Below, piece after piece: positions 27,581-50,853 of a stretch of DNA of 64,000 nt. How positions within the stretch are numbered: the first letter of the stretch is position 1; each line of letters starts with the position of its first letter. The stretch is from an uncultured Acidobacteriota bacterium (GTDB lineage Bacteria > Acidobacteriota > JAQAZP01). A program made the translations under genes and the position numbers. The stretch covers positions 1,600,001 through 1,664,000 of the forward strand of contig CAWIIB010000001.1 in assembly GCA_963836075.1 (NCBI GenBank), read 5' to 3'. A model generated the notes under the pieces. The model saw only the letters and a program-made list of their open reading frames with translations. It made no database searches and was not told where the DNA came from.

Positions 27581-30560
27581 ATGAGCGCGAATCGCCCACT
27601 GACCATCATTTTTGCACTGCTGATATCGATCTGCCTGGTGAACGGCGCCACCGCCGACCAGGTGTGGGTCTCCACCGGCGCCCAGGGACAGCCGGTTTTC
27701 GGTGAGACCGGCGAAGCGGCCGGACCGCAGGTCCTGGTAACGGCATCCGACGCCTCCTCGATCCTGCTGGATGTGGACGTTCCCGGCTTCAGCATCGTGA
27801 GGCAGAAGACCAGGGGCGGCGATTTCCTCGTCCTCAACTGGCCCGACGCTGCCGCCGCCGGTGCGGTGGGCTCCCCCATGCTGCCGGTGGTCCGCGAACT
27901 GTTCCTCGCACCCCACGGGGCCGAGGTCAACGTCAGTGTCCAGGCGGGCCTGCCGCTGGTGATCGACGCCCAGGCCCTGGGCTTCGACTTCCGGGTCATG
28001 CCGCGCCAGGCGCCGGTGCCCAAGATCAAGGGCGCTTTTGCCAACGCCCCCTTCGCCTATGACGCGGCGGTCTACAGCACCGCCGGCCAGCTGCCCCTGC
28101 AGCAGGCCACGGTGACCGAGCTGGGCACCGCCCGCGGCCAGCGGCTGATGCTGCTGGAAGTCTCCCCGCTGGTCTACAACCCGGCGGCGGGACGGATCGC
28201 CTACACCCCGCAGATCAGCGTGCAGATCGACTTCCAGGGCGGCAGCACCGAAACATCCGCCCTGCGGCCCCTGCCCGGCCTGCTGGACAACGTGCTCAAC
28301 CCCGACCTGTCCGGCTACCAGCACGACGCGCTGCGCGGCACCGGCAACTACCTGGTGATCGCGGCTTCTACCCTTTCCGGCCACGCCAAGCTGACCGAGT
28401 TCGTCAATGCCAAGACCGCCCAGGGATTCACCGTCAGCACCTACAGCGTGCCGGGCGGCACCTCGAACACCGCCATCAAGTCCTACATCTCCGGTCTGTG
28501 GGGCGGCGCCAACTCGCCGGACTACATCCTGCTGGTGGGCGACAGCAACACCATCCCCGGCTGGACCGGCGGCGGCGACGGCAGCCCCTACACCGACCTG
28601 CCCTATGCCTGCATGGACGCCGGCGACGACTGGACCCCGGACATCGCCATCGGCCGTTTCCCGGCCGATGACGGCGCCGAACTGACCGTCCTCGTGGACA
28701 AGACCCTCAGCTTCGACAACGGCGTCTTTGCCGATGCCGAGTACACCGCCCGGGCCTGCTTCATGGCCTCGGTGGACAACTACACGGTGAGCGAGGGGAC
28801 CCATAACTACGTGGTGAGCAACCACATGGACCCCAACGGCATCGTCTCGGAGAAGCTCTACCAGGTGACCTACGGCGCCACCACCCAGGACGTGCGCGAC
28901 GCCTTCAACGACGGCAAACTCTACGGTTGTTACAGCGGCCACGGCGCCACCACCTACTGGGCTGACGGGCCGGAGTTCCACCAGAGCGACATCAACAACC
29001 TGAGCAACTACCAGATGTACTCCTGGGTGCTCAGCTTCGCCTGCATCACCGGCACCTACAACATCGACGAGTGCTTCATGGAGACCTGGGTCCTGGCCGC
29101 GGACAAGGGTGCGGTTGCCGCCTGGGGTTCCAGCGTCAACAGCTACTGGACCGAGGACGACGTGCTGGAGAAACGGCTCTTCGACGTGCTGTGGGATGAC
29201 GACGTGCGCGAACTGGGCCCGCTCTACAACACCACGAAGATCGTCTACGCCGGCGAGATGGGCAGCGGATCCTTCACCCGCCGCTACTTCGAGATGTACA
29301 ACCACATGGGCGACCCGGCCCTCTTCATCCCCTACGCCATCCAGACGGCGATGACGGTCACCCCCAACAGCGCCTTTGAGTCCGAAGGGCAGAGCGGTGG
29401 CCCCTTCACTCCGACCAGCAAGGTCTACACCATCGAGAACACCGGGGTCACCGGCTTCAACTACACGGTGAGCAAGACCCAGAGCTGGGTCACTCTCTCC
29501 TCCACCAGCGGCTACCTGACGGCCGGCGCCACGGCCAACATCACCGCCTCGATCAACTCCGCGGCCGACTCGCTGGCCGACGGCGGCTACACCGACACCA
29601 TCTCCTTCGTAAACACCACCAACCATGACGGCGACACTGCCCGCAGCGTCAACCTCCAGGTGGGCGTGCCGGTGATGCAGTACCGAGTGGAACATGGACA
29701 CCAACCCCGGCTGGACCACGGCCGGCCAGTGGGCCTACGGATCCCCCACCGGCGGCGGCGGTGCCTACGGCAACCCCGACCCCACCAGCGGCGCCACCGG
29801 CCCCAACGTCTACGGCTACAACCTTGCCGGCGACTACGCCAACAGCATGTCCGAGACGCACCTCACCTCCACGGCCATCGACTGCACCGACCTGGCCGAC
29901 GTCAGCCTGCGCTTCCAGCGCTACCTCAACGTGGAGACGCCGAGTTACGACCACGCCTACGTGCGGGTAAGCAACAACGGCTCCAGCTGGACCACGGTCT
30001 GGGAGAACACGTCTGAAGTGACCGACTCGTCCTGGTCCATGGTGGAGTATGACATCTCCGACGTTGCCGACGGTGAGTCCACCGTCTACCTCCGCTGGAC
30101 CATGGGCACCACCGATTCCAGCTGGACCTACAGCGGATGGAACATCGACGACGTGCAGATATACGCCCTCGGCGGCGGCACCGTGGTGCCCACCGACACC
30201 GTGGAAGTGGCCATCGGCTGCACCCCGGACAGCGGCGTGCTGCCCTTCGCCACCCAGATGGCGGTGTCGCTGAGCAACCTGACCACCGAGAACCGCCGGG
30301 CCGCCGGCCGGATCGACATGGTGATCGGCAACGGCAGCTCGTACACCAACTGGCGTGCCGGCTGGACCAATCTCAGCAGCGGCGAAGTCTACAGCAACAT
30401 GTGGACCCAGAACCTGCCGGGCCTGGCGTCCATGGTGGGCAACAACGTCTTCACCCTGACCGGTGTTGACGTGACTCCCGCTCCTTACAACCAGCCGCCC
30501 TTCGCGCCTTCCGGCGACACTCACACCGACGCCTGCACGGTGGTGGCCACGGCCCCCTGA
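27581..30560 (+). CDS. Secreted gingipain-like C25 cysteine peptidase (propeptide, catalytic, BACON-like and jelly-roll domains, shared C-terminal domain); +1 frameshift at ~29683
   Basis: Signal peptide; YILLVGD, IAIGRFP, YSGHG (His), SFAC (Cys), GDPA. Deleting one C of TACC joins the two ORFs as QYEWNMDTNPGW. Confidence 0.88.
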
Positions 30561-30876: not shown

Positions 30877-31068
30877 CTGCCATGCTGGAGGCGTCGGCAT
30901 TCAGGCGGCCGCTCCTCCCGGTTTTTCACTCCCTGCCTGAGGTGAGAGTTCTCATATCACCTGAATAAAAAGAATCCATCAAAAAGCACGTTAATGTTCG
31001 GGGATGCTGACGCGGCATGGCAGCGGAGCACCAGATCCCCGGAGAGGCCGCACCCTGGAGGAGTTCTG
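30877..31068 (+). ncRNA. Candidate structured 5' leader RNA (family A, copy 2)
   Basis: CTGCCATGC (30877)/GCATGGCAG (31015); TCAGGCGG/CTGCCTGA stem; GGGGAT/ATCCCC stem. Confidence 0.4.
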
Positions 31069-34000
31069 ATGACCGCGCACCGCACACTGATCGTCATGAT
31101 CGCTCTGCTGGCATCGTTCTGCCTGATCAGCAGCAACGCCGGCGCCACCCAGATCTGGGCCACCACGTCCGATGAGGGGACCGCCGCCCTGAAAGAGATG
31201 AGCATCGCCACTGCTCCCGAGGTGGACGTCCTGTCCGCCGACGAATCTGGCATGCGTCTCGACATCCGGGTACCCGGATTCTCACTGGACCTGCAGAAGA
31301 CCAGGGGCGGCGAGTTTCTCGTCCTCGGCTGGCCCGAAGCGGCTCCCTCGGGCGCGCTGGGCGCTCCTGCCCTGCCGGTGGTCCGCGAACTCTTCCTCGC
31401 GCCCCTCGGCGCCGCGGTCTCGGTGCAGGTGAACGCGGGCGATCCGATCCGGGTGGATGCGGACCTGCTGGGTCATGACTTCCGGGTGATGCCGCGACAG
31501 GCCCCGGTGCCCAAGCTCCCCGGTGCGTTTTCCAGCGCCCGTTTCGAGTTTGACGCACAGGCCTACGGTTCGAGCCAACTCCCCGCAGAACGGGCCCTGG
31601 TCACCGAGCTGGGCATCTTCCGCGGCCAGCGCCTGATGCTTCTCGAGGTCTCCCCCCTGGCCTACAACGCCAGGGACCAGCGGATCGCCTTCTGGCCTGC
31701 CATGAACGTACAGGTCAGTTTCCAGGGCGGCACTGCAGCCAAAAGCACGCTGCGGCCCCTGCCCGGCCTGCTGGACAACGTGCTCAACCCCGAACTTGCC
31801 GGTGAGCAGACCGCCATGCGCGGCACCGGCAATTACCTGGTGATCGTGGCCGAAACCTTTGCCGCCCACGCCAAGATGACCGAGTTCATCAACGCCAAGA
31901 CGGCCCAGGGCTTCACCGTCAGCACCTACTCCGTACCGGCGGGAACCGCCAACACGGTGATCAAGACCTATATCGAGGGTCTCTACGGCGGCGCCAGTTC
32001 CCCCGACTACATCCTGCTGGTGGGCGACAGCGACACCATCCCCCACTGGGTGGGCGGCGGTGAAGGCAGCCCGCACACCGATCTGAACTACGTCTGCATG
32101 GACGGCTCCACCGACTGGAGCCCGGACATCGCCATCGGCCGCTTTCCGGTGGACGACGGCGCCGAACTGACCGTGATGGTGGACAAGATCCTCAGCTACG
32201 ACAACGGCCAGTTCGCCGACGCCAGCTACACCTCCCGGGCCTGCTTCATGGCTTCGGTGGACAACTACACGATCAGTGAGGGGACCCACAACTACGTCAT
32301 CGACACCCACATGGAGCCCAACGGGATCGTCTCCGACAAGCTCTACCAGGTGACCTACGGGGCCGACACCCAGGACGTGCGCGACTCGTTCAACGGCGGC
32401 CGGCTCTACGGTTGTTACAGCGGCCACGGCGGCACCTACAGCTGGGCCGACGGACCGCCCTTCGAACAGAGCGACATCAACAACCTGACCAACTACCAGA
32501 TGTACTCCTGGGTGCTCAGCTTCGCCTGCATCACCGGCACCTACACCGTGGACGAGTGCTTCACCGAGACCTGGGTGCTGGCCGCCGACAAGGGCGCCAT
32601 CGCCGCATGGGGCTCTTCGGTGAACAGCTACTGGACCGAAGACGACGTGCTGGAGAGGCGGCTCTTCGACGTGCTCTACTTTGACGACGTGCGCGAGCTG
32701 GGCCCGCTCTACAACGCGACCAAGATCGTCTACGCCGGGGAGATGGGCACCGGGCAGACCACCCGCCGCTACTTCGAGATGTACAACCACCTCGGCGACC
32801 CGGCGACCTTTATTTCATACGGGATCGCCGCGTTGCGCGTCACCCCGTCCAGCGGCCTGATCGCCGAGGGACCGGAGGGCGGCCCCTTCGCTCCCGCCAG
32901 CAAGGTCTACACCCTGAGCAACCTCGCCGATTATCCCATCGACTACACGGTGGCCCTGCAGGGCGGCGAGAGCTGGCTCGACCTCACCGGCGCGCTCAGC
33001 GGCACGCTGAACACCGGCGAAACCGCTGAGGTCACCGTGGCGCTCAACGCCGGGGCGGACACCCTGCCCATCGGCGCCTTCGGCGACACCGTGGTCTTCA
33101 CCAACCTCACCGACGGCATCGGCGACACTACCCGCGAGGTCAGCCTCGAGGTGGGCCGCTACGTCTACCACTCGGCCGACGTGCCCCAGGCGATCAACGA
33201 CAACTCCACCATCACCAGCACCCTCGACGTGGCCGACCACTTCTGCATCGCCGACGTCGATGTCGAGCTGGACATCACCCACACCTACATCGGCGACCTG
33301 ACGGTGAGCCTGACCTCGCCCGAGGGCACCATGGTCACCCTGCACAACCGCAGCGGCGGCAGCAGCGCCAACATCCAGCAGACCTACGACGACGAGGGAA
33401 CCGCCCCTGACGGCCCGGGGGCACTCTCCGACTTCGACTTCGAGTCGCCCATGGGCACCTGGACCCTCACCGTCACCGACAGCGCCGGCGGCGACACCGG
33501 CACGCTCAATGCATGGTCGGTTAAGGTGCTGCCCAGCGGCGACGAGTGCCCGCCGGTGGCCCTGGACGACGAGATCTCCACCGCACCGTTCACCGTGGTC
33601 GACGTGCAGCTGCAGGGCAGCACCATGACCGCCGAACCGCTGGACTTCATCATCACCACCCTGCCGGCCCACGGCACGCTCCGCGACGGCCAGGCGCTGA
33701 TGATCGACACCGTGCCCTACACCCTCACCGGCCCCGACCAGTGGGTGCGCTACGTGCCCGAGTACGGCTACCTCGGTGACGACTCCTTCACCTTCATCAC
33801 CTACGACGGGCAGGACTCGGCCACGGCCACGGTGACCGTGCACATCGGCGAGACCTCCACGATCTACGAGTTCGATCTCGACACCGATCCGGGGTGGATG
33901 ATGAGCGGCGACTGGGCCTTTGGCCAGCCCGCGGGCATCGACGGCGACCCGACCTCCGGCGCCACCGGCACCAACGTCTACGGCAACAACCTCAATGGTG

Positions 34001-34833
34001 AATACACTGACGACATGTCCGCCGTCTACCTGACCACCGGCATGATCGACTGCACCGACCTGATCGATGTCAGCGTCAGTTTCCAGCGCTGGCTCGGTGT
34101 CGAGTCGGCCAGCTACGACCACGCGCAGTTCCAGATCAACACCGCCGGCCTGCTCTGGGACACCATCTGGGAGAACGAGGCCAGCACGATGAACGAATCG
34201 AGCTGGACCGAGCAGGTCTACGACATCTCCGGGTACGCCGACGGCCAGGCCAATGTCCGTCTGCGCTGGGTCCTCGGGCCCACCGACGGCTCGGTGACCT
34301 ACCACGGCTGGAACATCGACGACATCGCGATCATCGCCACCGACACATCGGTGGAGCCGCCGCCGGACTGCAACGAGAACGGCGTGCCCGACCTGCAGGA
34401 CATCATCGACGGCACCAGCAGCGACGTCAACGGCAACGGCATCCCCGACGAGTGCGAGGGCGTGACCTCCACCATCGATGCCTCCCTGACCTGCACCCCG
34501 GACAGCGGAGTGCTGCCCTTCACCACCCAGATGGCGGTGGATCTGGCCAACCTGACCACCGAGAACCGCCGCGCCGCGGCCCGCATCAACATGGTGCTGG
34601 CCAACGGCACGCCCTACACCAACTGGCGTGCCGGCTGGACCAACCTCTCCTCCGGGGAGACCTTCAGCACCAGCTGGAACCAGAACCTGCCGGCCCTCGG
34701 CACCCTGGTGGGCAGCAACGTCTTCACCATCGTCGGTGAGGATGTCACTCCGGCGCCCTACAACCAGCCGCCCTTCGCGCCCTCCGGCGACACGGCCACC
34801 GACGACTGCACGGTGACCGCTTCGGCGCCGTAA
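31069..34833 (+). CDS. Secreted gingipain-like C25 cysteine peptidase with BACON-like, proprotein convertase P, Ig-like and jelly-roll domains, a DCNxNG motif and the shared C-terminal domain
   Basis: Same C25 motifs as the paralog; ITHTYIGDLTVSLTSPEG (P domain); GDDSFTF (Ig-like); DCNENGVPD…NGIPDECE; GGAGG before ATG 31069. Confidence 0.9.
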   Translation: MTAHRTLIVMIALLASFCLISSNAGATQIWATTSDEGTAALKEMSIATAPEVDVLSADESGMRLDIRVPGFSLDLQKTRGGEFLVLGWPEAAPSGALGAPALPVVRELFLAPLGAAVSVQVNAGDPIRVDADLLGHDFRVMPRQAPVPKLPGAFSSARFEFDAQAYGSSQLPAERALVTELGIFRGQRLMLLEVSPLAYNARDQRIAFWPAMNVQVSFQGGTAAKSTLRPLPGLLDNVLNPELAGEQTAMRGTGNYLVIVAETFAAHAKMTEFINAKTAQGFTVSTYSVPAGTANTVIKTYIEGLYGGASSPDYILLVGDSDTIPHWVGGGEGSPHTDLNYVCMDGSTDWSPDIAIGRFPVDDGAELTVMVDKILSYDNGQFADASYTSRACFMASVDNYTISEGTHNYVIDTHMEPNGIVSDKLYQVTYGADTQDVRDSFNGGRLYGCYSGHGGTYSWADGPPFEQSDINNLTNYQMYSWVLSFACITGTYTVDECFTETWVLAADKGAIAAWGSSVNSYWTEDDVLERRLFDVLYFDDVRELGPLYNATKIVYAGEMGTGQTTRRYFEMYNHLGDPATFISYGIAALRVTPSSGLIAEGPEGGPFAPASKVYTLSNLADYPIDYTVALQGGESWLDLTGALSGTLNTGETAEVTVALNAGADTLPIGAFGDTVVFTNLTDGIGDTTREVSLEVGRYVYHSADVPQAINDNSTITSTLDVADHFCIADVDVELDITHTYIGDLTVSLTSPEGTMVTLHNRSGGSSANIQQTYDDEGTAPDGPGALSDFDFESPMGTWTLTVTDSAGGDTGTLNAWSVKVLPSGDECPPVALDDEISTAPFTVVDVQLQGSTMTAEPLDFIITTLPAHGTLRDGQALMIDTVPYTLTGPDQWVRYVPEYGYLGDDSFTFITYDGQDSATATVTVHIGETSTIYEFDLDTDPGWMMSGDWAFGQPAGIDGDPTSGATGTNVYGNNLNGEYTDDMSAVYLTTGMIDCTDLIDVSVSFQRWLGVESASYDHAQFQINTAGLLWDTIWENEASTMNESSWTEQVYDISGYADGQANVRLRWVLGPTDGSVTYHGWNIDDIAIIATDTSVEPPPDCNENGVPDLQDIIDGTSSDVNGNGIPDECEGVTSTIDASLTCTPDSGVLPFTTQMAVDLANLTTENRRAAARINMVLANGTPYTNWRAGWTNLSSGETFSTSWNQNLPALGTLVGSNVFTIVGEDVTPAPYNQPPFAPSGDTATDDCTVTASAP

Positions 34834-34872
34834 ACGGCAGCGGCCTCAGGCCGGACCAACAGTCCACAGCAC

Positions 34873-34908
34873 GGCCCCCCGCCCCGGCAACGGGACGGGG
34901 GGCCTTTT
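34873..34908 (+). terminator. Rho-independent terminator
   Basis: GGCCCCCCG…CGGGGGGCC followed by TTTT. Confidence 0.75.
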
Positions 34909-34922
34909 CCATTCCAGGTCAG

Positions 34923-34972
34923 CTACTTCAGCAGTGCCTCGACCTCCGTCTTCAGACGGGCGGCCCCGCCGG
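34923..34972 (-). pseudogene. 3' fragment of the tlpA-like gene (PGGAARLKTEVEALLK*)
   Basis: Matches 37090-37139 with two substitutions. Confidence 0.8.
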
Positions 34973-35249: not shown

Positions 35250-37001
35250 ATGCTTAAATGGCCCCGAGTTCCTGTCCGGCTGTTACCGTTGCTACTGTGC
35301 GGATTTATTCTCTGCAGCGCCGGCATCGCACATGCCGCACCGCTGTCCGGCACCTACACGATCGGGGGCACCGATCCACACTTCGTCACCATCCAGGACG
35401 CGACTGCAGCCCTCAGCGCCAACGGTGTTGATGGCCCGGTGGTGTTCGACATCCGTACCGGTATTTATGACGGCCCGGTCAGCGTGCCCGATACCGCCGG
35501 TGTATCCGTTGACAACACCATTACCTTTCAGTCAGAGGCCGGGAATGCCAGCGATGTAACGGTCCGTTCAGACAGCGGGGTATGGGTCATCTTCAGTGAT
35601 TACGTCACACTGCAACACCTGACGATCATGCAAGAGCCGTTTGGCACGTCCGATTACGGCCGTGTACTCACCATATCGGGCGACACGGATCACATCAAAA
35701 TCCTCAACAACCGTTTGCATGGCAGAAGGACAACTACAAACATCCGGGACCGCTACGCGGTTCTGTTCAACTGGAAGACATCAACCTATGCGGCCGATGA
35801 TATTCTTATCGAGGGCAACGAAATTCTGTATGGCAGCGTGGGCATCGACTGGGACGGCAGTACCCTGATCACCGGCTCCGAGCTGCGCGTTCGCAACAAC
35901 AGCATTCGTGAGTTCGGCATTAACGGCGTGCAGATACTCAAGGAACCGGCGCTCGAGCTCATCGGCAACGAGATAGCCAGCCGCTCGATCTACCTCAGCT
36001 ATCCCTATGGCGTCATTCTGGAGTTCTGTGACGGACCCATTCTTGTCGACAAGAACCGCATCAGCGTCGATGGGCACATTGGCATGGGTATACGCGAGAG
36101 TCATTCAACCACGGCCGGTCCCGGCTTGATCACAAACAACTTTGTCTCAGTCGATTCTGGCAGGGTCGGCCTCAACATCGACGACTCGGAATACCAGACG
36201 GTCGCGCACAATACCGTCCGATTTACCGGCACGTACCAGTCCGATCCGGCGCTGAAGGTCTACGATGGGACCCACCATCGCCTGCTCAACAACATCTTGA
36301 TGAACACGACCGATGGAGCGGCCATCAGCATAACTTTTCCCGACATCAGTGTCGACCAATGTGACTACAACCTGCTGTATTCGGCGAGTGGCGCCATAGG
36401 TATTACCAGCACTTTCACAACGCACTACGCGCTGGCCGACTGGCAGGCCGCAACCGGGCATGATCTCAACTCGGTCGAGGCCGAGGCACTGTTCGTGAGT
36501 GCGGAAGACTCGCACCTGGTCGCAGGGTCGCCCGGCATCGACCTGGCGCTAACAGGTGAAGTCATCGATGATATCGACTACGAGCTGCGACCTGTGGCTG
36601 CCGATATGGGTGCCGACGAGTATCTGGGCGTGACCCCCACCATCGGCGCCTCCCTGACCTGCACCCCGGACAGCGGCGTGCTGCCCTTCACCACCCAGAT
36701 GGCGGTGGACCTGGCCAACCTGACCACCGAGAACCGCCGCGCCGCGGCCCGCATCAACATGGTGCTGGCCAACGGCACGCCCTACACCAACTGGCGTGCC
36801 GGCTGGACCAACCTCTCCTCCGGTGAGACCTTCAGCACCAGCTGGAACCAGAACCTGCCGGCCCTCGGCACCCTGGTGGGCAGCAACGTCTTCACCATCG
36901 TCGGTGAGGATGTCACTCCGGCGCCCTACAACCAGCCGCCCTTCGCGCCCTCCGGCGACACGGCCACCGACGACTGCACGGTGACCGCTTCGGCGCCGTA
37001 A
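35250..37001 (+). CDS. Secreted right-handed parallel beta-helix (pectin lyase-like) protein with the shared C-terminal domain
   Basis: Signal peptide ending AHA-A; LSGTYTIGG…GPVVFDIRTGIY; IxxNxI repeats; HL..GSPGID…DIDYELR…DMGADE; GGAG before ATG 35250. Confidence 0.82.
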   Translation: MLKWPRVPVRLLPLLLCGFILCSAGIAHAAPLSGTYTIGGTDPHFVTIQDATAALSANGVDGPVVFDIRTGIYDGPVSVPDTAGVSVDNTITFQSEAGNASDVTVRSDSGVWVIFSDYVTLQHLTIMQEPFGTSDYGRVLTISGDTDHIKILNNRLHGRRTTTNIRDRYAVLFNWKTSTYAADDILIEGNEILYGSVGIDWDGSTLITGSELRVRNNSIREFGINGVQILKEPALELIGNEIASRSIYLSYPYGVILEFCDGPILVDKNRISVDGHIGMGIRESHSTTAGPGLITNNFVSVDSGRVGLNIDDSEYQTVAHNTVRFTGTYQSDPALKVYDGTHHRLLNNILMNTTDGAAISITFPDISVDQCDYNLLYSASGAIGITSTFTTHYALADWQAATGHDLNSVEAEALFVSAEDSHLVAGSPGIDLALTGEVIDDIDYELRPVAADMGADEYLGVTPTIGASLTCTPDSGVLPFTTQMAVDLANLTTENRRAAARINMVLANGTPYTNWRAGWTNLSSGETFSTSWNQNLPALGTLVGSNVFTIVGEDVTPAPYNQPPFAPSGDTATDDCTVTASAP

Positions 37002-37139
37002 ACGGCAGCGGCCTCAGGCCGGACCGACGGTACACAGCACGGCCCCCCGCCCCGGCAATGGGACGGGGGGCCTTTTCATTTCGAGACTTCTACTTCAGCA
37101 GTGCCTCGACCTCCGTTTTCAGCCGGGCGGCCCCGCCGG
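36626..37139 (+). repeat. Direct repeat copy 2
   Basis: Near-identical to 34458-34972. Confidence 0.92.
37041..37076 (+). terminator. Rho-independent terminator
   Basis: GGCCCCCCG…CGGGGGGCC followed by TTTT; lies between convergent genes. Confidence 0.75.
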
Positions 37140-40080: not shown

Positions 40081-40249
40081 GATGACTCCTCTTGAACGGG
40101 GCGACAGGGACACCGGCTGAATCGACACGGTCCTGTTATCAATATAGAGTCATTCCCCGGATCGGGCAAGGGAGCGACAAAGACTTGTTTCCGGGAGCGG
40201 AAAATTCTATCCTGTCCCAGACTGGAAGCATCGATATTCGGAGACGGTG

Positions 40250-41335: not shown

Positions 41336-41406
41336 CCCGGCCCCCGTGGGACACTTTGGCGACGAGGTGGTCTAAACCGGCGAAAGGAACAGTGCATTCC
41401 TGCGCA

Positions 41407-41533
41407 TGTCATTGCGAGCCCCCGACCCGCGGGGGACGCGGGAAGTCAGAGGAAGAAACACCGTTCTTAGGTAAACGTCCCCATTTTTTGGTGATCGCCG
41501 CGTCGTCGGCTACGCCGACTCCTCGCGATGACA
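41407..41533. repeat. Palindromic REP-like element (TGTCATTGCGAG…CTCGCGATGACA type)
   Basis: Terminal inverted repeats; internal hairpins CCCCCG…CGGGGG and GTCGGC-TAC-GCCGAC. Confidence 0.65.
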
Positions 41534-41660
41534 AGAGGGTCCTGTTCCTTGAGAGGGGCACCATACCCCTTCATTTACCATTGACTGGGGCGCAGCAGTT
41601 CCCTAATCTTTCGCATCCGTTAAACTGGATTTATAGTCTGCGGCAGGGGTGCAATACAGA

Positions 41661-43121
41661 ATGAACTACAAATCCATCGCCCATGTCATGGGCAAATTGA
41701 TGGTGATCACCGGCGCCACCATGTTGTTGCCGGTGATCTGCACCTTCTTCTACCCGGGAGAGGGCGATCTCTTCGCCCTGCTGCTTTCCACTCTCATCGT
41801 CACCGGTGCGGGGCTGCCCTTTTGGTGGTTTTTCCGCCGTCACGATGAACTGAACATCCGCGACGGGTTCTTCATCGCCGTGGCCGGCTGGACCCTGATC
41901 TCCTCGGTATCGGCGCTGCCCTTCATGATCCACGGCAGCATCCCCTCGTTCACCGACGGCTTTTTCGAGATGATGTCCGGCTACACCACCAGCGGGGCCA
42001 CCATCCTCACCGACATCGAAGTGGTGCCCCACGGGCTGCTCTTCTGGCGCAGCCAGACCCACCTGCTGGGCGGAATGGGCTTTCTGACCCTGACCATCAT
42101 CTTCCTGCCCCACGGTATGGGCGGCCTGCGTATTTTCCGGGCCGAGTCGAGCCCGGGGCAGGTCATCACCAAAGAAAAGTTTCTGCCCCGCAACCGGGAC
42201 ACCATGATCTGGCTCTGGGGCATCTACCTCGGGCTGAACCTGCTGCAGACAACGCTGATGTGTCTTGGCGGAATGAGCCTTTTCGATTCGCTGTGCCATG
42301 CTTTCGGCACGGTCTCCACATCCGGGTATTCGACCCACAACGCCAGCGTGGGTTACTACAACAGCGCCTATATCGACTGGGTGATCATCATCTTCATGGT
42401 CCTCGGCGGGATGACCTTCATGCTCTTCTACCACGGCCTGAAGGGCAACTGGCGGGAAATTCGGATCAACACCGAGCTGCGCTGGTATGCCGGCTTCCTG
42501 CTCTTCTTCTGTCTCACGGTGGCCCTGCTGCTGTGGGTCAACGGGACCTATGACGGCCCGCTGGACTCGCTGCGCTACGCCAGCTTCCAGGTGGTGTCGC
42601 TGCTCACCACCACCGGCTTCACCACCGCGGACTACGAGCTGTGGCCCCAGTCGACGCAGATGTTTCTCTATGCCGTCTGCTTCATCGGCGCCTGCGCCGG
42701 GTCCACCACCAGCGGCATCAAGGTCGTGCACTACGTGCTGATCTGGAAGTTCATGGTGGCCTCGATCAAGAAGATCTTCTTCCAGCCCCTGGCGGTGACC
42801 AGCATCCGGCTGAACCGGCGTCCGGTGGAACCGGCCATCGTCAACCTGGCCGTTTGCTACTTCATCGTCAACATCTTCCTCGTGCTGGGCGGGGGCTGTT
42901 TCATGGTGCTGGTGGACGACATGGATTTCACCACCGCCATGAGCTCGGTGATCGCCACGCTGATGAACATCGGTCCGGGGTTCGGCGAAGTTGGGCCCTC
43001 GCATAATTACGCCCAGATATCGGCGGTGGGAAAGTGGTTCCTCTCCTGGCTGATGCTGGTGGGACGGCTGGAGATGTTCTCGGCGCTGGTGATCTTCTAC
43101 CCCTCGTTCTGGCGGAAATAA
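41661..43121 (+). CDS. trkH: Trk potassium uptake membrane subunit
   Basis: FEMMSGYTTSGAT, TVSTSGYS, TTTGFT, NIGPGFG, GRLE. Confidence 0.95.
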   Translation: MNYKSIAHVMGKLMVITGATMLLPVICTFFYPGEGDLFALLLSTLIVTGAGLPFWWFFRRHDELNIRDGFFIAVAGWTLISSVSALPFMIHGSIPSFTDGFFEMMSGYTTSGATILTDIEVVPHGLLFWRSQTHLLGGMGFLTLTIIFLPHGMGGLRIFRAESSPGQVITKEKFLPRNRDTMIWLWGIYLGLNLLQTTLMCLGGMSLFDSLCHAFGTVSTSGYSTHNASVGYYNSAYIDWVIIIFMVLGGMTFMLFYHGLKGNWREIRINTELRWYAGFLLFFCLTVALLLWVNGTYDGPLDSLRYASFQVVSLLTTTGFTTADYELWPQSTQMFLYAVCFIGACAGSTTSGIKVVHYVLIWKFMVASIKKIFFQPLAVTSIRLNRRPVEPAIVNLAVCYFIVNIFLVLGGGCFMVLVDDMDFTTAMSSVIATLMNIGPGFGEVGPSHNYAQISAVGKWFLSWLMLVGRLEMFSALVIFYPSFWRK

Positions 43122-44786: not shown

Positions 44787-47700
44787 CTATGGTGAGACGC
44801 CGGTCACCGTGACGGTGTCGGTGTCGGTATCTCCCGAGAGAGCATATGGCGGCTGGTTGTAGGGGGCCGGCGTGACGTCAACACCGATGAGGGTGAAGAC
44901 ATTGCTGCCCACCAGTGTGGGCAGGCCGGGGAAGTTCTGGTTCCAGACCTTGGTGAAGACTTCACCGGAGCTGAGGTTGGTCCAGCCGGCTCGCCAGTTG
45001 CCATACGAGTTGCCGCTGGCGATCACCACGTCGATCCGGCCGGCGGCCCGGCGGTTCTCGGTGGTCAGGTTGGTCAACCGCGTGATGAACTGCGTAGTGA
45101 AGGGCAGGGTCGCCGTGTCGGGATTGGCGTCGATGAACACGCCCACCGTGTCGGTGATGACCCCGGGGTCGCAGGAGAACGCGCTGAGGGTCACGTCATC
45201 GATGTTCCAGCCGCAGTACTGCCAGGAACTGTCGGTGGTCCCCATGGTCCAGCGGAGGTAGACCGTGGCCTCGCCGTCGGCAAAGGCCGAGAGGTCGTAC
45301 TCCTCCAGAACCCATGAACCATCAGCGACTTCGGCACTATTCGACCAGAGGGTGTCCCAACTGCTGCCGTTGGTGCTGATGCGCAGGTAGGCATGGTCAT
45401 AGAGCGGCTGCTCCACACCGAGCCAGCGGCGGAAGCTGAGCACCACGCCCTGCTGGGCCGAACAGTCGATGGCCGGAGTGGTGAGATGGGTTTCGCTGAG
45501 GTTGTTCTCGTAGTCGCCGGCAAGGTTGTAGCCGTAAACGTTGTTTCCGGTGTAACCGCTGGTGGGGTCGGGGTTGCCGTACTGCCCGCCGCCGCCGGTG
45601 GGCTGACCCCAGGCCCAGAGGCCCGCGGTGGTCCAACCGGGGTTGGTGTCCATGTTGGCGGAGTAGAAAGTGGTCAACTCTCCCACCACGGCGCTGTAAT
45701 AGAGGGCCGGGGCGCTGCTGGGGCTGTAGACCATGCCGCTCACATCACCCTCGGCACTGACATAGAACTCCGGCGTATCGGTGCAGCTCGGTGCGGGCAG
45801 CGTGGCATCAAAGAGATCGCTGCCAGCCGGCACCAGGGCCGTGGTCAGCCATGAGCCGCCATCGTAGCGGTAGTGCAGAGTGCCGCTGCCCGGAACATAC
45901 GATTCCCCGGTGGCCGTGATCAGCACGCTGAAGGTGGTGGGGACGTCCGGCGGGATCACCTCGGGTGCTCCGTCCGGCAGGAAAATCGAGATGTAACCCG
46001 GGTCGGGGTCGGTCGGGGCGGCGTCGTTGGTCAGCATCAGCTCGTCCACCACGATCCGGCCCTCGTCAGCTCCCCAGGAGGGGCCGCAGTCAAAACGAAC
46101 CGCCACGATGTCGCTGAGGTCAAGACCCGAGTTGTTGTTCAGGAAATCGGTGAGGCGGAGGCGGATAACCTCCATCTCGTTGTGCCAGCCGCCGGAGCGG
46201 TCGTACGGCTGCTCGAGACCGCCGCCGTTAGCGCCGATGTTGATCGAGCTGCTGGTCCCGCTGCCGTCGCGCAGGGTCACGCTGAAGTCGAGGTCGCCCA
46301 TGACAACCAGGGTGTTCGGGTGACGGGTGCCCTGGGCACCGCGGAAAGAGAGGTAGAGGTCGTCGCTGAAGTCCTGCTGGGAGGCTACGACGCCCCACTC
46401 GATGTAGCGGTTGCTGCCGTTCCAGTCGAAGACCACGCCTCTGCTGTCGTCAGAGGAGGATGCCTGGGTGGCGCCGTTGAACGGGTCGGAGGTGGTCCAC
46501 GCGAAATCAGAGTTGTTGTCATCCAGCCGGCCTTCGGTGAGGTTGGTCACGGTGTAGGCTACCGATCCGCCGGAGCTGCTGGTGCTGGTGGATGTCTGGG
46601 ACTGGAAGTCGTCGATGAAGAAGTTGCCGGTGTCACCACCGTTGCGGTATTCGTGGGTCACCACCACGCAGGGATTCGAAGTGTCGACACCGATGGGGCT
46701 GAACTTCTCATACTGGCGCCAGAGGAAGTCCCGGGCCGGGATGTTGCCGTTGACATAGTGCTTGACCAGGGGCAGGAAGTAGCCCAGCTGGATCTGGTGG
46801 GTCACCGTCTCGCCGATGGAGCAGGGGCCGGTGAAATAGGAACTGCCGGTGCCATCGTGGAACCAGCCGTGGCCGGTGCCCTGCACCACGGTGGACTGCC
46901 GGTAGCGGGTGGCCCGGTCGTGGAGGTGGAAGGTCTGGCACAGGTCGCAGCTGGCCGAACCATTGACATCGGAGTCGCCGGCAGCGGTCCAGAGGTGGTA
47001 GTTCGCCCCGTGGGGATCCGCGTTGTTGGTCTTGAGGAAGTCGGTGGGCAGCATGCTGCTCAGCAGCACCACGTCTTCGAGAACGAACTCCGAGGGCGTG
47101 TAGCCGTCCACGATCCGGTCGTAGGCCCGGGTGATCCCCTCGCCGCCGCGGCTGTGGCCGATCCAGGTGATGGCCGAGGAATCGATGTGCCCGTTGAGAA
47201 CCCCGCCGCCGATGGTGCCCTGGTTGGCCAGGATATAGTCGGTGTTGGTCAGGGTGGTGGTGGAGGCGGTTTCGATCCCCGGGCCGGTGTTGTTCTCGTG
47301 GGACATCACGATGTAGCCATAGGAGGCCAGGTGGTAGCCGATGTGGTCATACCACGTGTAATCGTGCCCGTTGCCGTGGCTGATCACCACCAGGGGCAAG
47401 AGGCCCATGGAGGCGATGTCGGTGGGATAGTAGGTGTCCTGACCGAGCCACGATCCACCGCTGTAAATGATCTCGGTCACCGCCAGCGGCCCGGACTGGG
47501 TGGTGTCGTGCACCGCGTAGAGCCCCGCCTCGTCGCCGAGACCGTCGATATAGTCCACGTCGTCCAGCACGCCGTTCTGGTTCATGTCCAGCACGATGTC
47601 GTATCCCACGCCGAGACCGGTACCGGCACTGGCGTTGAGGGTGTTGGCGGCAGCCACCAACCAGTCATTGGCCTGGATCGAGGCGCTGCTGAAGGTCACG

Positions 47701-48059
47701 GTGAGCGGTCCGCCGGCCACATCGGTCAAGCCGGGGTTTGACGCCCACTGGGCAGCGTCCTGTGCATCAACCACAAAGATGTCCGCCGTATCCCCGACGA
47801 TGCCCGGGAACCGGAAGGGGTCGATGGCCACACGAACGGTGGAATTGACGTTGAAAGCCTTGACGTATTCGAAGTACGGATACTGGGCCAGGGAGTTCCC
47901 GGCCAGCTCGGTCTGCCGCTCAGGCGGCGGCACGGCGGCAGAGGCCGGCGCCGCGGCAAGGGCCAGGACGAGCAGCGCAAGAAACAGTGCCGGCAGGCGG
48001 CGCTGCCGATGAGACGTTCCGGAATTCGAATGACCACGGATCTTCTTGGATAGTGACAC
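44787..48059 (-). CDS. Secreted alpha/beta hydrolase-fold protein with jelly-roll module and the shared C-terminal domain
   Basis: Signal peptide; LPLVVISHGNG…HLASYGY; GHSRGG nucleophile elbow; candidate Asp (DSDV) and His (GHGWF). Confidence 0.83.
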   Translation of the reverse strand: MSLSKKIRGHSNSGTSHRQRRLPALFLALLVLALAAAPASAAVPPPERQTELAGNSLAQYPYFEYVKAFNVNSTVRVAIDPFRFPGIVGDTADIFVVDAQDAAQWASNPGLTDVAGGPLTVTFSSASIQANDWLVAAANTLNASAGTGLGVGYDIVLDMNQNGVLDDVDYIDGLGDEAGLYAVHDTTQSGPLAVTEIIYSGGSWLGQDTYYPTDIASMGLLPLVVISHGNGHDYTWYDHIGYHLASYGYIVMSHENNTGPGIETASTTTLTNTDYILANQGTIGGGVLNGHIDSSAITWIGHSRGGEGITRAYDRIVDGYTPSEFVLEDVVLLSSMLPTDFLKTNNADPHGANYHLWTAAGDSDVNGSASCDLCQTFHLHDRATRYRQSTVVQGTGHGWFHDGTGSSYFTGPCSIGETVTHQIQLGYFLPLVKHYVNGNIPARDFLWRQYEKFSPIGVDTSNPCVVVTHEYRNGGDTGNFFIDDFQSQTSTSTSSSGGSVAYTVTNLTEGRLDDNNSDFAWTTSDPFNGATQASSSDDSRGVVFDWNGSNRYIEWGVVASQQDFSDDLYLSFRGAQGTRHPNTLVVMGDLDFSVTLRDGSGTSSSINIGANGGGLEQPYDRSGGWHNEMEVIRLRLTDFLNNNSGLDLSDIVAVRFDCGPSWGADEGRIVVDELMLTNDAAPTDPDPGYISIFLPDGAPEVIPPDVPTTFSVLITATGESYVPGSGTLHYRYDGGSWLTTALVPAGSDLFDATLPAPSCTDTPEFYVSAEGDVSGMVYSPSSAPALYYSAVVGELTTFYSANMDTNPGWTTAGLWAWGQPTGGGGQYGNPDPTSGYTGNNVYGYNLAGDYENNLSETHLTTPAIDCSAQQGVVLSFRRWLGVEQPLYDHAYLRISTNGSSWDTLWSNSAEVADGSWVLEEYDLSAFADGEATVYLRWTMGTTDSSWQYCGWNIDDVTLSAFSCDPGVITDTVGVFIDANPDTATLPFTTQFITRLTNLTTENRRAAGRIDVVIASGNSYGNWRAGWTNLSSGEVFTKVWNQNFPGLPTLVGSNVFTLIGVDVTPAPYNQPPYALSGDTDTDTVTVTGVSP

Positions 48060-48380: not shown

Positions 48381-48411
48381 CGCCCCCCGGCCGCCGCACG
48401 GCCGGGGGGCG
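48381..48411 (-). terminator. GC-rich hairpin after the hydrolase paralog, putative terminator
   Basis: CGCCCCCCGGCCG…CGGCCGGGGGGCG. Confidence 0.6.
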
Positions 48412-48420
48412 GGGGGCAAG

Positions 48421-50853
48421 CTATGGCGAAACTCCGGTCACAGTGACGGAGTCGGTGTCGGTGTCTCCCGAGAGAGCATAGGGCGGCTGGTTGTACGGGG
48501 CCGGCGTGACGTCAGCAGCGATGAGGGTGAAGACATTGCTGCCCACCAGTGTGGGCAGGCCGGGGAAGTTCTGGTTCCAGACCTGGGTGAAGACTTCCGA
48601 GGGGTCGAGGTTGGTATAACCGGCCCGCCAGTTGCCAAACGAGTTGCCGCTGGCGATCACCACGTCGATCCGGCCTGCCGCCCGGCGGTTCTGGGTGGTC
48701 AGGTTGGTCAACCGCGCAATGAACTGCGTGGTGAAGGGCAAAACCGCCGTGTCGGGATTGGCATCGATGGACGCAGTCACCGTGTCGATGACGGTTGGCG
48801 GGTCCGTCGGTGACGCATCGTTGGTCAGCATCAGCTCGTCCACCACGATCCGCCCCTCGTTGGCGCCCCAGGAAGGACCGCAATCGAGACGCACCGCCAC
48901 GATGTCGGAGAGATCGAGACCCGAGTTGTTGTGCAGGAAGTCGGTAAGCCTGAGGCGGATCACCTCCATCTCGTTGTGCCAGCCGCCGGACCGGTCGTAT
49001 GGTTGCTCGAGGCCGCCGCCGTAAGCGCCGATGTTGATCGAGCTGCTGGTCCCGCCGCCGTCGCGAAGGGTCACGCTGAAGTTGAGGTCGGTCATCGCCG
49101 CCAGGGTGTTGGGATGCTGGGTGCCCTGTGCGCCGCGGAAGGAGAGGTAGAGGTCGTCACTGAAGTCCTGCTGGGCGGAGATGATGCCCCACTCGATGTA
49201 GCGGTTGCTGCCGGTCCAGCTGAAAACCACGCCTTTGCTGTCGTCGGACGAGGAGGCCTGGGTGGCGCCGTTGAACGGGTCAGACGAAGTCCAGCTGAAA
49301 CTGCTGTTGTTGTCATCCAGGCGACCCTCGGTGAGGTTGTCCACGGTGTAGGTCACCGAGCCGCCCGAGCTGCTGGTGGATGTGGAGGGTTCGCTCTGGA
49401 AGTCGTCGATAAAGAAGTTGCCGCTGGCGCCGCCGTTGCGGTATTCGTGGGTCACCACGACACAGGAGTTGGAGGTGTCCACGCCGATGGGACTGAACTT
49501 CTCGTACTGGCGCCAGAGGAAGTCCCGGGCCGGGATGTTGCCTTCGACATAGTGCTTGACCAGGGGCAGGAAGTAGCCCAGCTGGATCTGGTGGGTCACC
49601 GTCTCGCCGATGGAGCAGGGGCCGGTGAACCAGGAGGTGCCGCCGTTGTCGTGGAACCAGGCGTGGCCGGTGCCCTGCACCACCGTGGACTGCCGGAACG
49701 CGGTGGCCCGGTCGTGGAGGTGGAAGGTCTGGCAGAGGTCGCAGCTGGCCGAGCCGTTGACGTCGGCGTCGCCGGAGGCGGTCCAGAGGTGGTAGTTGGC
49801 GCCATGGGGGTTCGAGCTGGCGGTCTTGAGAAAGTCGGTGGGCAGCATGCTGCTCAACAGCACCACGTCCTCGAGGGTGAACGCCGACGGGGTGTAGCCG
49901 TCCACTATCCGGTCATAGGCCCGCGTGATCCCTTCGCCGCCGCGGCTGTGGCCGATCCAGGTGATGGCCGAGGAATCGATATGCCCGTTGAGCACCCCGC
50001 CGCCGATGGAGCCCTGGTTGGCGATGATGTAGTCGGTGTTGGTCAAGGTGGTGGTGGAGGCGGTCTCGATGCCCGGCGAGGTGTTGTTCTGGTGGGACAT
50101 CACGATGTAGCCGTACGAGGCCAGGTGGTAGCCGATGTGATCATACCAGGTGTAGTTGTGCCCGTTGCCGTGGCTGATCACCACCAGCGGCAGCTGACCC
50201 ATTGAGGCAATGTCGGTGGGATAGTAGGTATCCTGGCCCAGCCAGGTCCCGCCGCTGTAAATGATCTCGGTCACGGCCAGCGGGCCGGACTGGGTGGTGT
50301 CGTGCACCATGTAGAGGCCGGCCTCATCACCCAGGCCGTCAATGTAATCCGGGTCGTCCAGCATGCCGTTCTGGTTCATGTCCAGCACGATGTCGTAGCC
50401 CACACCGAGGCCGATGCCGGCATCGGCGCTGAGGGTGCTGGCAGCGGCAAGCAGCCAGGTATTGGCCTGGATCGAGGTGCCGCTGAAGGTTACGGTGAGC
50501 GGTCCGCCGGTCACGTCGGTCAGCCCCGGGCTGGAGGCCCACTGGGCCGCATTCTTGGACACCACAAGATAGATGTCCGCCGTCTGCCCCACCACCCCGG
50601 GGAAACGGAAGGGGTCGATGGCCGCACGAACCACGGCGTTGACGTTGAATGCCTTGACGTACTCGAAATACGGATACTGGAGAATGCTGTTTCCGGCCAG
50701 CTCGGTCTGCCGCTCCGGCGGCGGCACGGCGGCTGAGGCCGGTGCTGCGGCAAGGCCCAGCACCAGCAGCGCAAGAAACAGTGCCGGCAGGCGGCGCTGC
50801 CGATGGTACGCTCCGGAATTCAAATGACCACGGATCTTCTTGGATAGTGACAC
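48421..50853 (-). CDS. Secreted alpha/beta hydrolase-fold protein (tandem paralog) with the shared C-terminal domain
   Basis: Highly similar to 44787-48059 but lacks ~280 aa; GTG start after GAGGAG as in the paralog. Confidence 0.83.
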   Translation of the reverse strand: MSLSKKIRGHLNSGAYHRQRRLPALFLALLVLGLAAAPASAAVPPPERQTELAGNSILQYPYFEYVKAFNVNAVVRAAIDPFRFPGVVGQTADIYLVVSKNAAQWASSPGLTDVTGGPLTVTFSGTSIQANTWLLAAASTLSADAGIGLGVGYDIVLDMNQNGMLDDPDYIDGLGDEAGLYMVHDTTQSGPLAVTEIIYSGGTWLGQDTYYPTDIASMGQLPLVVISHGNGHNYTWYDHIGYHLASYGYIVMSHQNNTSPGIETASTTTLTNTDYIIANQGSIGGGVLNGHIDSSAITWIGHSRGGEGITRAYDRIVDGYTPSAFTLEDVVLLSSMLPTDFLKTASSNPHGANYHLWTASGDADVNGSASCDLCQTFHLHDRATAFRQSTVVQGTGHAWFHDNGGTSWFTGPCSIGETVTHQIQLGYFLPLVKHYVEGNIPARDFLWRQYEKFSPIGVDTSNSCVVVTHEYRNGGASGNFFIDDFQSEPSTSTSSSGGSVTYTVDNLTEGRLDDNNSSFSWTSSDPFNGATQASSSDDSKGVVFSWTGSNRYIEWGIISAQQDFSDDLYLSFRGAQGTQHPNTLAAMTDLNFSVTLRDGGGTSSSINIGAYGGGLEQPYDRSGGWHNEMEVIRLRLTDFLHNNSGLDLSDIVAVRLDCGPSWGANEGRIVVDELMLTNDASPTDPPTVIDTVTASIDANPDTAVLPFTTQFIARLTNLTTQNRRAAGRIDVVIASGNSFGNWRAGYTNLDPSEVFTQVWNQNFPGLPTLVGSNVFTLIAADVTPAPYNQPPYALSGDTDTDSVTVTGVSP

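Follow-up and report, generated by a model that had tools for sequence, protein, structure and literature searches.

Six genes within a 64,000-nucleotide stretch of the genome of an uncultured Acidobacteriota bacterium (the stretch is hereafter called the window, the genome G000) encode proteins that end in one and the same domain of about 122 amino acids. We lean, if not strongly, towards reading this tail as a lineage-specific C-terminal sorting or anchoring tag, modelled as a folded Ig-like sandwich with a predicted disulfide. Sortases, exosortases and the type IX secretion system (T9SS) were first recognised via shared C-terminal tags. The present tag lies outside every catalogued family, in a genus without detected T9SS parts or another abundant tag. 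Should a dedicated partner exist, the tag would mark a new route for bringing proteins to the surface or the exterior of a diderm cell; even as a mere docking module it shows which proteins of this uncultured lineage are likely to be secreted or surface-bound, and its HMM is a ready annotation handle. The lineage is narrow, and the function is deduced by inference.

Six tagged genes and the genome-wide census

The six genes and their tail domains are located in the window as follows.

27581-30560, plus strand: C25 peptidase gene A, with propeptide, C25, BACON-like and MAM-like domains and the tail (translations, Pfam)
30192-30557, plus strand: tail domain copy 1, in C25 gene A (alignment, profile search; G000:C1:1630192-1630557)
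31066-34833, plus strand: C25 peptidase gene B, with signal peptide, propeptide, C25, P-domain, Big_9 and MAM-like domains and the tail (translation, Pfam)
34465-34830, plus strand: tail domain copy 2, in C25 gene B; the copy used for the structure model (pLDDT 95.3)
35250-37001, plus strand: beta-helix protein A, with signal peptide and tail (translation, Pfam Beta_helix/NosD)
36636-36998, plus strand: tail domain copy 3, in beta-helix protein A; DNA 97% identical to copy 2
38548-40080, minus strand: beta-helix protein B, with signal peptide and tail (translation, Pfam)
38551-38919, minus strand: tail domain copy 4, in beta-helix protein B; the most divergent of the six (alignment)
44787-48059, minus strand: alpha/beta hydrolase A, PAF-AH/PETase-like, with MAM-like domain and tail (translation, Pfam)
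44790-45161, minus strand: tail domain copy 5, in hydrolase A (alignment)
48421-50853, minus strand: alpha/beta hydrolase B, a paralogue of hydrolase A without the MAM-like domain, with tail (translation, Pfam)
48424-48798, minus strand: tail domain copy 6, in hydrolase B (alignment)

A preliminary description of this DNA had already assigned the genes to C25 peptidases, beta-helix proteins and alpha/beta hydrolases, two of each. Pfam searches bore out these assignments, the hydrolases being of the PAF-AH/PETase-like type, and the coordinates given earlier were right, with 27581 and 50853 as the outermost gene starts. Signal-peptide-like N-termini were likewise recognised by eye in all six translations. 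A single frameshift interrupts C25 gene A at about 29685-29734, as located by tblastn with the orthologue of a sister MAG (L031 ORF, 1009 aa), which is intact. The ORFs at 40139-41245 (minus strand) and 40360-41664 (plus strand) look spurious from their codon-position GC.

Alignment confirmed that a single module terminates all six proteins. The six-tail alignment comprises 126 residues with 44 invariant columns and a mean column identity of 75%. Tails are 48-98% identical in all 15 pairs, whereas the passengers gave no BLASTP match in 11 of these pairs, the remaining four matches being accounted for by two paralogue pairs and the shared MAM-like domain. The earlier statement that the tail is far more conserved than its passengers therefore holds across unrelated passengers but not for the hydrolase pair, in which passengers and tails are both 88% identical. 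Invariance is found in the NWRAG-TN and W-QN strands, in the DVTPAPYNQPPY loop and in the Ala-Pro at the C-terminus. Among the 186 full-length terminal copies of this genome, two Cys columns co-vary (both Cys present in 127 copies, neither in 27, a single one in 32), which fits a disulfide made outside the cytoplasm.

An HMM of the tail detected 218 copies in 217 frames of the 6.2-Mb genome, i.e. about one frame per 29 kb (217 in 6.23 Mb), compared with six in the window, and the domain is thus not restricted to this locus. The copy ends exactly at the stop codon in 181 of 218 cases; 186 of the 217 frames carry a full-length, terminal copy, and 162 of these 186 end in Pro. Among 301 Acidobacteriota genomes searched, the domain was present in three, all of one genus, and 504 of 1.84 billion cluster representatives matched it. 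The 150 best metagenome representatives have the tail in terminal position in 146 cases and end in Pro in 134; eight carry two tandem copies and four a non-terminal one, and G000 itself contains two divergent internal copies. The tail had been described as always terminal and always single-copy, which is nearly the case but has to be relaxed by these exceptions. Tandem doubles and rare internal copies are seen more typically in binding modules than in export signals and count against a sorting tag.

Passengers and the position of the tail in homologues

We sampled 64 complete tagged ORFs, of which 41 carry a Pfam family, none of these being of cytoplasmic type. The 41 comprise 15 peptidases (C25, M14, S8, M28, M23 and trypsin-like kinds occur), 7 beta-helix, 5 FG-GAP and 6 BNR/sortilin proteins and 8 others. 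At least 20 unrelated passenger types bear the tail, non-enzymes included, and a multihaem cytochrome-like protein belongs to the tagged set. A crude signal-peptide test was positive for 126 of 168 tagged frames compared with 837 of 2100 background frames, the heuristic thus still calling about 40% of the background positive although it was the stricter of two; in the sister MAGs 53 of 62 tagged frames were positive. The first heuristic (139 of 186 tagged frames) was too lax, as 1304 of 2100 background frames were positive, and its figure was therefore set aside. The preliminary description had named four observations that would speak against its reading, namely a match to a known family, frequent internal or N-terminal sites, occurrence on cytoplasmic proteins and confinement to the locus; none of the four was made.

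Homologues of the passengers indicate what else may stand at this place. Proteins with the M14-CarboxypepD_reg-MAM architecture end in Por_Secre_tail/FlgD_ig or Dockerin_1, with C-terminal tails at residues 757-835 of 840 in P0330, 852-927 of 930 in P0366 and 708-763 of 766 in P0341. PF18962 and/or PF13860 is present in 26 of the 120 homologues listed, PF00404 in 7. In C25-P-domain-MAM homologues (~50% identity), which include records named Planctomycetes/Phycisphaerae, dockerin-like tails follow directly after the end of the MAM domain. The tail thus sits in the slot that homologues from other phyla fill with a dockerin or a T9SS tail. This replacement points to an address or anchor slot.

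Fold, known families and competing readings

An AlphaFold model of the tail is all-beta, with eight strands and no helix, and therefore without a TM helix, as had been stated for the domain before. The modelled fold is a generic Ig-like/CARDB-like beta-sandwich, a common fold that says nothing specific about function. The top structural match was RbmA (PDB 4be5/4kkp, FnIII domains; Z 11.9, rmsd 2.7, 106 residues aligned), and CARDB of PF1109 (3idu) matched with Z 9.9 and rmsd 3.0 over 103 residues. Many unrelated chains follow below RbmA at Z 9-11, glycosidase sandwich domains are among the matches, and identities within the structural alignments to the tail range from 8 to 16%. A sequence search of solved structures gave a best E-value of 0.35. 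The ESM Atlas returned CARDB-like leads only, every one below 0.9. Prediction of a tail-tail complex (score 0.01, mark 0.42) is evidence in neither direction.

The claim that the sequence resembles no known motif stood up in the family searches. None of the six tails matched any Pfam family at E<=10, and hence no CBM or lectin family, and NCBIfam at the same threshold yielded nothing but one chance match to BlaC (E 0.1). Literature searches on C-terminal sorting and secretion domains of Acidobacteriota turned up nothing on the tail. With CARDB (PF07705) and other E-set Ig-like domains it shares the sandwich fold and the extracellular setting, but there is no HMM match and those domains are usually internal and repeated, whereas the tail is strictly terminal and mostly single-copy. 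The Solibacter C-terminal domain in NCBIfam/TIGRFAMs is restricted to Acidobacteria, where many proteins of a single lineage end in it, and the tail resembles it in these respects; unlike such catalogued lineage-restricted domains, however, it is matched by no NCBIfam model apart from the chance hit. PEP-CTERM and LPXTG signals consist of a short motif, a hydrophobic helix and a basic tail, while the present domain is a folded all-beta unit, as modelled, that ends in Ala-Pro.

The strongest competitor of a sorting or anchoring tag is a passive binding module of the lectin, CBM or CARDB type, which would make already secreted proteins adhere to polysaccharide, matrix or envelope of the cell that made them, or else to a polymer outside it, with neither dedicated machinery nor a role in export. 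The structural likeness to the RbmA matrix scaffold, to CARDB and to glycosidase sandwich domains agrees with such a module, as do the CARDB-like Atlas leads, the richness of the conserved tail residues in Trp, Tyr, Asn, Gln, Arg and Asp, the tandem doubles in 8 of 150 representatives and the presence of dockerins, themselves docking modules, in the same slot of homologous passengers. Lack of dedicated machinery would also account for none being found. However, such modules usually vary in position and copy number, whereas the tail mostly lies at the stop codon with a final Pro. Moreover, its passengers are mainly peptidases, beta-helix and FG-GAP proteins and not carbohydrate-active enzymes, which makes targeting to a polymeric substrate unlikely, and by sequence there is no match to a CBM or lectin family. 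We regard passive binding as unlikely, albeit with appreciable weight.

An improbable reading is that of a generic structural or folding-helper domain, i.e. a spacer or PPC-type extension that has no address function and was multiplied by duplication. The common Ig-like fold and the many peptidase passengers would suit a helper, and the family is young and limited to one genus, so that conservation alone proves little. It is harder to reconcile with the at least 20 unrelated passenger types, non-enzymes among them, and with the replacement of the tail by T9SS tails and dockerins in homologues; a spacer, furthermore, needs neither the last place nor a terminal Ala-Pro. The tail does not match PPC (PF04151) in Pfam, and the representative P0475 combines PPC, S8 and the tail in one protein, so the tail is no stand-in for PPC.

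Comparison with T9SS tails is instructive on both sides. Like the type A CTD of T9SS (PF18962/TIGR04183; PF13860), the tail is a terminal beta-sandwich, folded as modelled, on signal-peptide proteins, occurs once per protein and on many proteins per genome, has cargo rich in peptidases (C25 too), beta-helix and FG-GAP proteins, and takes the slot after a MAM-like domain in homologous M14 peptidases. Unlike that domain, it is far more conserved and measures about 122 residues as opposed to 72-75, it shows no likeness to it in sequence or profile, and its host genus belongs to the phylum Acidobacteriota and has no detected T9SS core genes; T9SS is a system of Bacteroidota and the FCB group. The tail gave no match at E<=10 to Por_Secre_tail (PF18962/TIGR04183), FlgD_ig (PF13860) or CHU_C (PF13585), and profile-profile comparison (hhalign) with 26 T9SS/FlgD_ig tails returned a probability of 1.5%. 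T9SS CTDs are absent among the top 50 fold matches listed (Foldseek, VIA-align).

Dockerin type I domains (PF00404), including the C-terminal tails of Planctomycetota/Phycisphaerae, are similar to the tail in being a shared C-terminal module of unrelated secreted proteins and are exchanged with it in C25-P-domain-MAM and M14 homologues. The occasional tandem duplication of the tail would suit a dockerin-like docking role. The dockerin, however, is a small duplicated calcium-binding helical module, whereas the tail is modelled as an eight-strand sandwich, does not match PF00404 and reached an hhalign probability of 0.2% against 14 dockerin-like tails.

Export machinery and a proposed route

Por_Secre_tail and FlgD_ig have no match above cut-off in the genus, and no PorV was found there. 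Several of the searches for T9SS parts had no working positive control: SprA, SprA_N and GldM were without a match in the genus, but the same searches were positive in no control genome, and their absence is therefore unproven. The best PorU-like C25 peptidase (G000:C1:1027244-1030054) scored 201.8 bits against a cut-off of 420 bits, and matches to the PorU model of at least 170 bits were also present in G001 and in the untagged G016, the best in G002 reaching 74.9 bits. It lies in a RiPP-like cassette, with genes for a radical SAM/SPASM-PqqD protein and for an HprK-related kinase beside it. We rejected this peptidase as a candidate sortase, given the score below cut-off, these neighbours, the comparably strong match in untagged G016 and the weak one in G002.

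That the tail is a very divergent CTD served by an unrecognisably divergent T9SS is very improbable: the common logic, in which proteins with a signal peptide end in a beta-sandwich and C25 peptidases are among the cargo, the T9SS tails in the same slot of homologues and the silence of the SprA, SprA_N and GldM searches in control genomes are compatible with it, but the tail differs from T9SS tails in length, sequence and profile, no such tail is among its top 50 fold matches, neither SprA nor PorV nor GldM was found, and all PorU-like matches fell below cut-off. The T9SS-like logic noted in the preliminary description, with C25 peptidases as classic cargo, is therefore retained as far as the common slot is concerned, whereas its counterpart in machinery was not detected in the genus by searches of which some had no working control.

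The genome searches run found no partner, translocon or scaffold for the tail. Clustering of 3982 frames within 6 kb of tagged genes revealed no clear recurrent untagged neighbour. About one third of the genome lies within 6 kb of a tagged gene, and the neighbour clusters were mostly spurious high-GC frames and common families. A GspD/E/F/G-like cluster, every member of which scored below its equivalog cut-off, would offer a route through the outer membrane. Other tags are rare, G000 having eight dockerin matches and one PEP-CTERM match. The proposal of a lineage-specific secretion signal or surface-docking domain with machinery encoded elsewhere is hence strengthened in its first half, by a numerous family of one genus on exported-type cargo, but not in its second, as neither machinery nor scaffold was found.

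Under the sorting or anchoring reading, tagged proteins would pass the inner membrane via Sec and fold once in the periplasm. One shared partner would then read the two invariant strands of the tail, its DVTPAPYNQPPY loop and its final Ala-Pro, and would hand the proteins to the cell surface or hold them there, with or without cleavage of the tail. The tag would thereby take the role that T9SS C-terminal domains have in the FCB group and dockerin-like tails in Planctomycetota. We have a weak preference for retention or docking after export via a T2SS-like secretin system over a dedicated translocon. A more far-reaching version, possible but rather doubtful, is that a deep-branching lineage of Acidobacteriota without T9SS has an undescribed pathway of export or surface attachment that uses the folded tail as its address signal, with about 200 cargo proteins per genome, and in which the DVTPAPYNQPPY loop and the free C-terminal Ala-Pro are read by a partner outside the known secretion systems.

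Recombination between the 3' ends of genes probably spread the tail through the genome, and its confinement to the C-terminus could then simply result from this process; its high conservation, too, may in part reflect the youth of the family and not constraint by a partner. Copies 2 and 3 are 98% identical in protein sequence, though the neighbouring passengers are unrelated. At the DNA level, positions 34445-34744 and 36613-36912 are 97% identical, and the likeness runs on beyond the stop codon, with 78% identity between 34876-34972 and 37043-37139.

Six window genes and their common tail

The five window genes named individually below are:

27581..30560 (+): C25 gene A, the first peptidase gene
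31066..34833 (+): C25 gene B, the second peptidase gene
35250..37001 (+): beta-helix protein A, the next gene
44787..48059 (-): alpha/beta hydrolase A
48421..50853 (-): alpha/beta hydrolase B

Translation confirmed that six genes share a C-terminal domain of ~122 residues (the tail), all as the preliminary description had them, and the Sec-type N-termini it proposed could be read from all six translations (6/6) as basic residues, then a hydrophobic segment and a site resembling Ala-X-Ala. According to Pfam, the remainders of the proteins (the passengers) are two Peptidase_C25 with C25 propeptide, two Beta_helix/NosD and two weakly matching PAF-AH/PETase-like alpha/beta hydrolases; in three of the six an InhA-like MAM domain lies immediately upstream of the tail. 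The tails align over 126 residues with 44 invariant columns and 75% mean column identity, and pairwise identity is 48-98% (15/15 pairs). Passengers gave no BLASTP match in 11/15 pairs, the four matches arising between the two C25 proteins, between the two hydrolases and through the shared MAM-like domain. Across unrelated passengers the tail is the more conserved part, as had been claimed, but not in the hydrolase pair, where both reach 88%. C25 gene A is broken by a single frameshift at window 29685-29734, which could be an assembly error or mark a young pseudogene; its orthologue in the sister MAG (L031:352-3378) is intact, with 1009 aa in one frame and 83-88% identity. Codon-position GC indicates that the real gene at window 40148-41332 (+) is a frame of ~390 aa, and by the same measure the ORFs 40139-41245 (-) and 40360-41664 (+) look spurious.

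None of the six tails (0/6) matched any Pfam family at E<=10, which agrees with the earlier impression that known tag motifs are not resembled. NCBIfam yielded one chance match only (BlaC, E 0.1), and a profile of 47 tails had no match among PDB sequences (best E-value 0.35). Judged by sequence, none of the libraries searched contains the tail family; the domain was not found in the literature searched and may be described elsewhere. An AlphaFold2 model from the 47-tail alignment (pLDDT 95.3, pTM 0.84) has eight strands; its long ordered loop, residues 98-113, corresponds to the nearly invariant DVTPAPYNQPPY..GDT stretch. The model retrieved a broad field of Ig-like/E-set sandwiches (70 chains at Z>=8), headed by RbmA (Z 11.9) and including the AlkC Ig-like domain (Z 11.2), the transglutaminase C-terminal barrel (Z 11.1), dextranase N-domains (Z 10.5) and CARDB 3idu (Z 9.9); ESM Atlas gave CARDB-like leads only, all sub-threshold. 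Such breadth points to a common fold and names no function.

Copy number, position and distribution

An HMM built from the six window tails was run on stop-to-stop frames of at least 60 aa from the genome of the window (G000; 6.23 Mb, 10 contigs). It detected 218 copies in 217 frames (domain E<1e-5); 181/218 copies end exactly on the stop codon and 186/217 frames carry a full-length, terminal tail, the remaining non-terminal or partial copies being mostly fragments divided between frames. Two internal copies are real, both divergent: after one come a MAM-like domain and an ordinary terminal tail, and after the other (residues 483-609 of a 1029-aa open frame, G000:C9:2819390-2822476 (-), 86 bits) come 420 Cys-rich, coding-looking residues. 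Among 1.84 billion cluster representatives, 504 matched at E<=1e-3 and 378 at E<=1e-30; in the best 150 the domain lies <=8 residues from the end in 146, is non-terminal in 4 and occurs as two tandem copies in 8. The tail had been described as always terminal and single-copy, which therefore stands as a rule but not without exception. A word-based search of 90%-identity clusters gave 871 matches, and none of the 120 listed bears a descriptive name.

In the 186 terminal copies of G000 the final residue is Pro in 162, and no Pro/Thr-rich linker precedes the domain. Two Cys columns are both occupied in 127 copies, both empty in 27 and singly occupied in 32; this paired presence or absence fits a disulfide and hence a location outside the cytoplasm.

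The domain extends beyond this locus to two further genomes (G001, G002), all in one genus. The HMM found it in 3/41 closest whole genomes (1/39 genera) and in 3/301 genomes of a phylum sample (1/185 genera; only 14 candidates scored per genome), tail-free genomes in both surveys being labelled only 'same phylum'; the unpublished genome G025 is among those without it. When a single genome for each GTDB species was scanned for the motif, 107 stretches were confirmed; the 76 loci kept all belong to two MAG records, whose contig prefixes are JAQAZP01 (record title Acidobacteriota bacterium) and CBESOE01.

Tagged genes are clumped: on contig C1, 37/91 gaps between successive ones are <5 kb. The tail DNA of C25 gene B and that of the adjacent, unrelated beta-helix gene are 97% identical, and the likeness persists past the stop codon (78% over 97 nt; window 34445-34972 versus 36613-37139 with this flank), which shows recent 3'-end copying or gene conversion onto another passenger. 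Such a tag can spread by 3'-end copying, which may be one reason why it is always last.

Passengers and the terminal slot

Passengers were classified in 64 complete tagged ORFs from two sister MAG records (Pfam, E<=1e-5). A family was assigned in 41/64 and none in 23; no cytoplasmic-type family occurs among the 41.

Passenger families of tagged ORFs
Peptidases: 15/41 (C25 x3, M14 x3, S8 x4, M28 x3, M23, trypsin-like)
Beta-helix or PMP-repeat proteins: 7/41
BNR/sortilin-type propellers: 6/41
FG-GAP proteins: 5/41
Other: 8/41 (arylsulfotransferase, cytochrome c3/c7-like, PQQ propeller, LamG, PAF-AH-like, CarboxypepD_reg only, DUF5122, and a DUF2341 protein also with weak GH43/130 matches)

Precomputed Pfam lists add F5/8 type C, CotH with LTD, GH5, papain C1, FGE-sulfatase and metallophosphatase, and one tagged S8 protein (P0475) also bears PPC. 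A crude and weak signal-peptide test was positive in 126/168 tagged frames of at least 300 aa versus 837/2100 other coding-looking frames, and in 53/62 tagged ORFs of the sister MAGs; an earlier, laxer test was set aside.

The most informative result is what homologues carry in the slot that the tail occupies. The nearest relatives of C25 gene B outside the genus (~50% identity, covering as much as 87% of its length; those named are Planctomycetes/Phycisphaerae) share its order of C25, P-domain, Big_9 and MAM-like domains, and directly after the MAM end 'WNIDDVEIWG' they have a short tail in which the repeat D-x-N-x-D-G...D occurs twice. Pfam places Dockerin_1 at 1106-1155 of 1164 in P0171 (22.7 bits, just below cut-off) and makes no such call for P0164 or P0177 (E<=1e-3); PF00404 is present in 9 of 120 listed homologues (precomputed lists). 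For a tagged M14 carboxypeptidase (an ORF of locus L038), 26/120 listed homologues carry Por_Secre_tail and/or FlgD_ig and 7/120 carry Dockerin_1, at the extreme end after the same order of M14, CarboxypepD_reg and MAM-like domains.

Terminal modules in M14 homologues
P0330: terminal module, 757-835 of 840
P0366: terminal module, 852-927 of 930
P0392: FlgD_ig, 791-850 of 863
P0341: Dockerin_1, 708-763 of 766

Therefore, three unrelated modules take one position: a known export/attachment signal, a known docking module and the tail. Profile-profile probabilities against the tail were 1.5% for T9SS/FlgD_ig tails (n=26) and 0.2% for dockerin-like tails (n=14).

Reading of the tail and search for machinery

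In its pattern the tail matches a sorting or anchoring tag: it ends ~200 unrelated exported-type proteins, is strictly terminal and retains its final Ala-Pro, has a likely disulfide, is confined to one genus without a competing tag, and fills a slot equivalent to that of T9SS tails and dockerins. We lean towards a tag that is read by a shared, putative partner.

Two full secretins are encoded in every genome of the genus. One in G000 lies within a PilM...PilQ cluster; the second belongs to a T2SS-like cluster (L109, G000:C1:2161001-2181000) with a GspD-like secretin, GspG-like pseudopilin, PilM-like protein, GspE/PilB-like ATPase and GspF-like protein, all below equivalog cut-offs, and with several no-family frames. 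The secretin and GspG/E/F-like genes thus offer a T2SS-like passage through the outer membrane, and we mildly favour the idea that tagged proteins would be kept at the surface after such export. That the tail is a passive binding module acting without machinery appears doubtful, and that it is a helper or spacer domain improbable.

Components of a T9SS were sought as well. Nothing exceeded the cut-off for Por_Secre_tail in G000 or for FlgD_ig in the three genomes of the genus, and PorV (NF033710) had no match there; neither had SprA (TIGR04189), SprA_N (PF14349) or GldM (TIGR03517), models that were silent in control genomes too, so that their silence does not establish absence. A very divergent T9SS tail is a highly implausible reading. 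In G000, Dockerin_1 was matched 8 times and PEP-CTERM once.

Many C25 peptidases match the PorU model, all below its 420-bit cut-off. The best in G000 (201.8 bits) is a C25 peptidase without tail, adjoined by a radical SAM/SPASM gene with PqqD domain and an HprK-related kinase A-like gene; this group (L107:8244-13735; G000:C1:1027244-1032735) looks like a peptide-maturation cassette. Best scores elsewhere were 218.4 bits in G001, 170.2 bits in the tail-free G016 and just 74.9 bits in G002. Given the shortfall from the cut-off, these neighbouring genes, the comparable score in G016 and the low one in G002, this peptidase was rejected as sorting enzyme.

Between the two tagged beta-helix genes, window 37090-38394 (-) encodes a periplasmic-type protein with a LolA-like DUF2092 and an AhpC/TSA-redoxin domain. 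Among the 41 genomes its full-length form occurs only in G000, G001 and G002, again beside tagged genes, and matches in other genomes are confined to the redoxin part. As no more than a lead, the protein might help with the tail disulfide. Elsewhere in the window, a glycan-type run at 12101-20761 (-) contains two DegT-family aminotransferases, LPG_synthase_TM, a GT9 heptosyltransferase and two PMT_2/ArnT-like glycosyltransferases, and 52389-60243 (+) encodes a PAS histidine kinase, then a receiver-AAA_16 protein, a MalT-like TPR-LuxR regulator and, at the end, a 1060-aa receiver-AAA_16-TPR-LuxR fusion.
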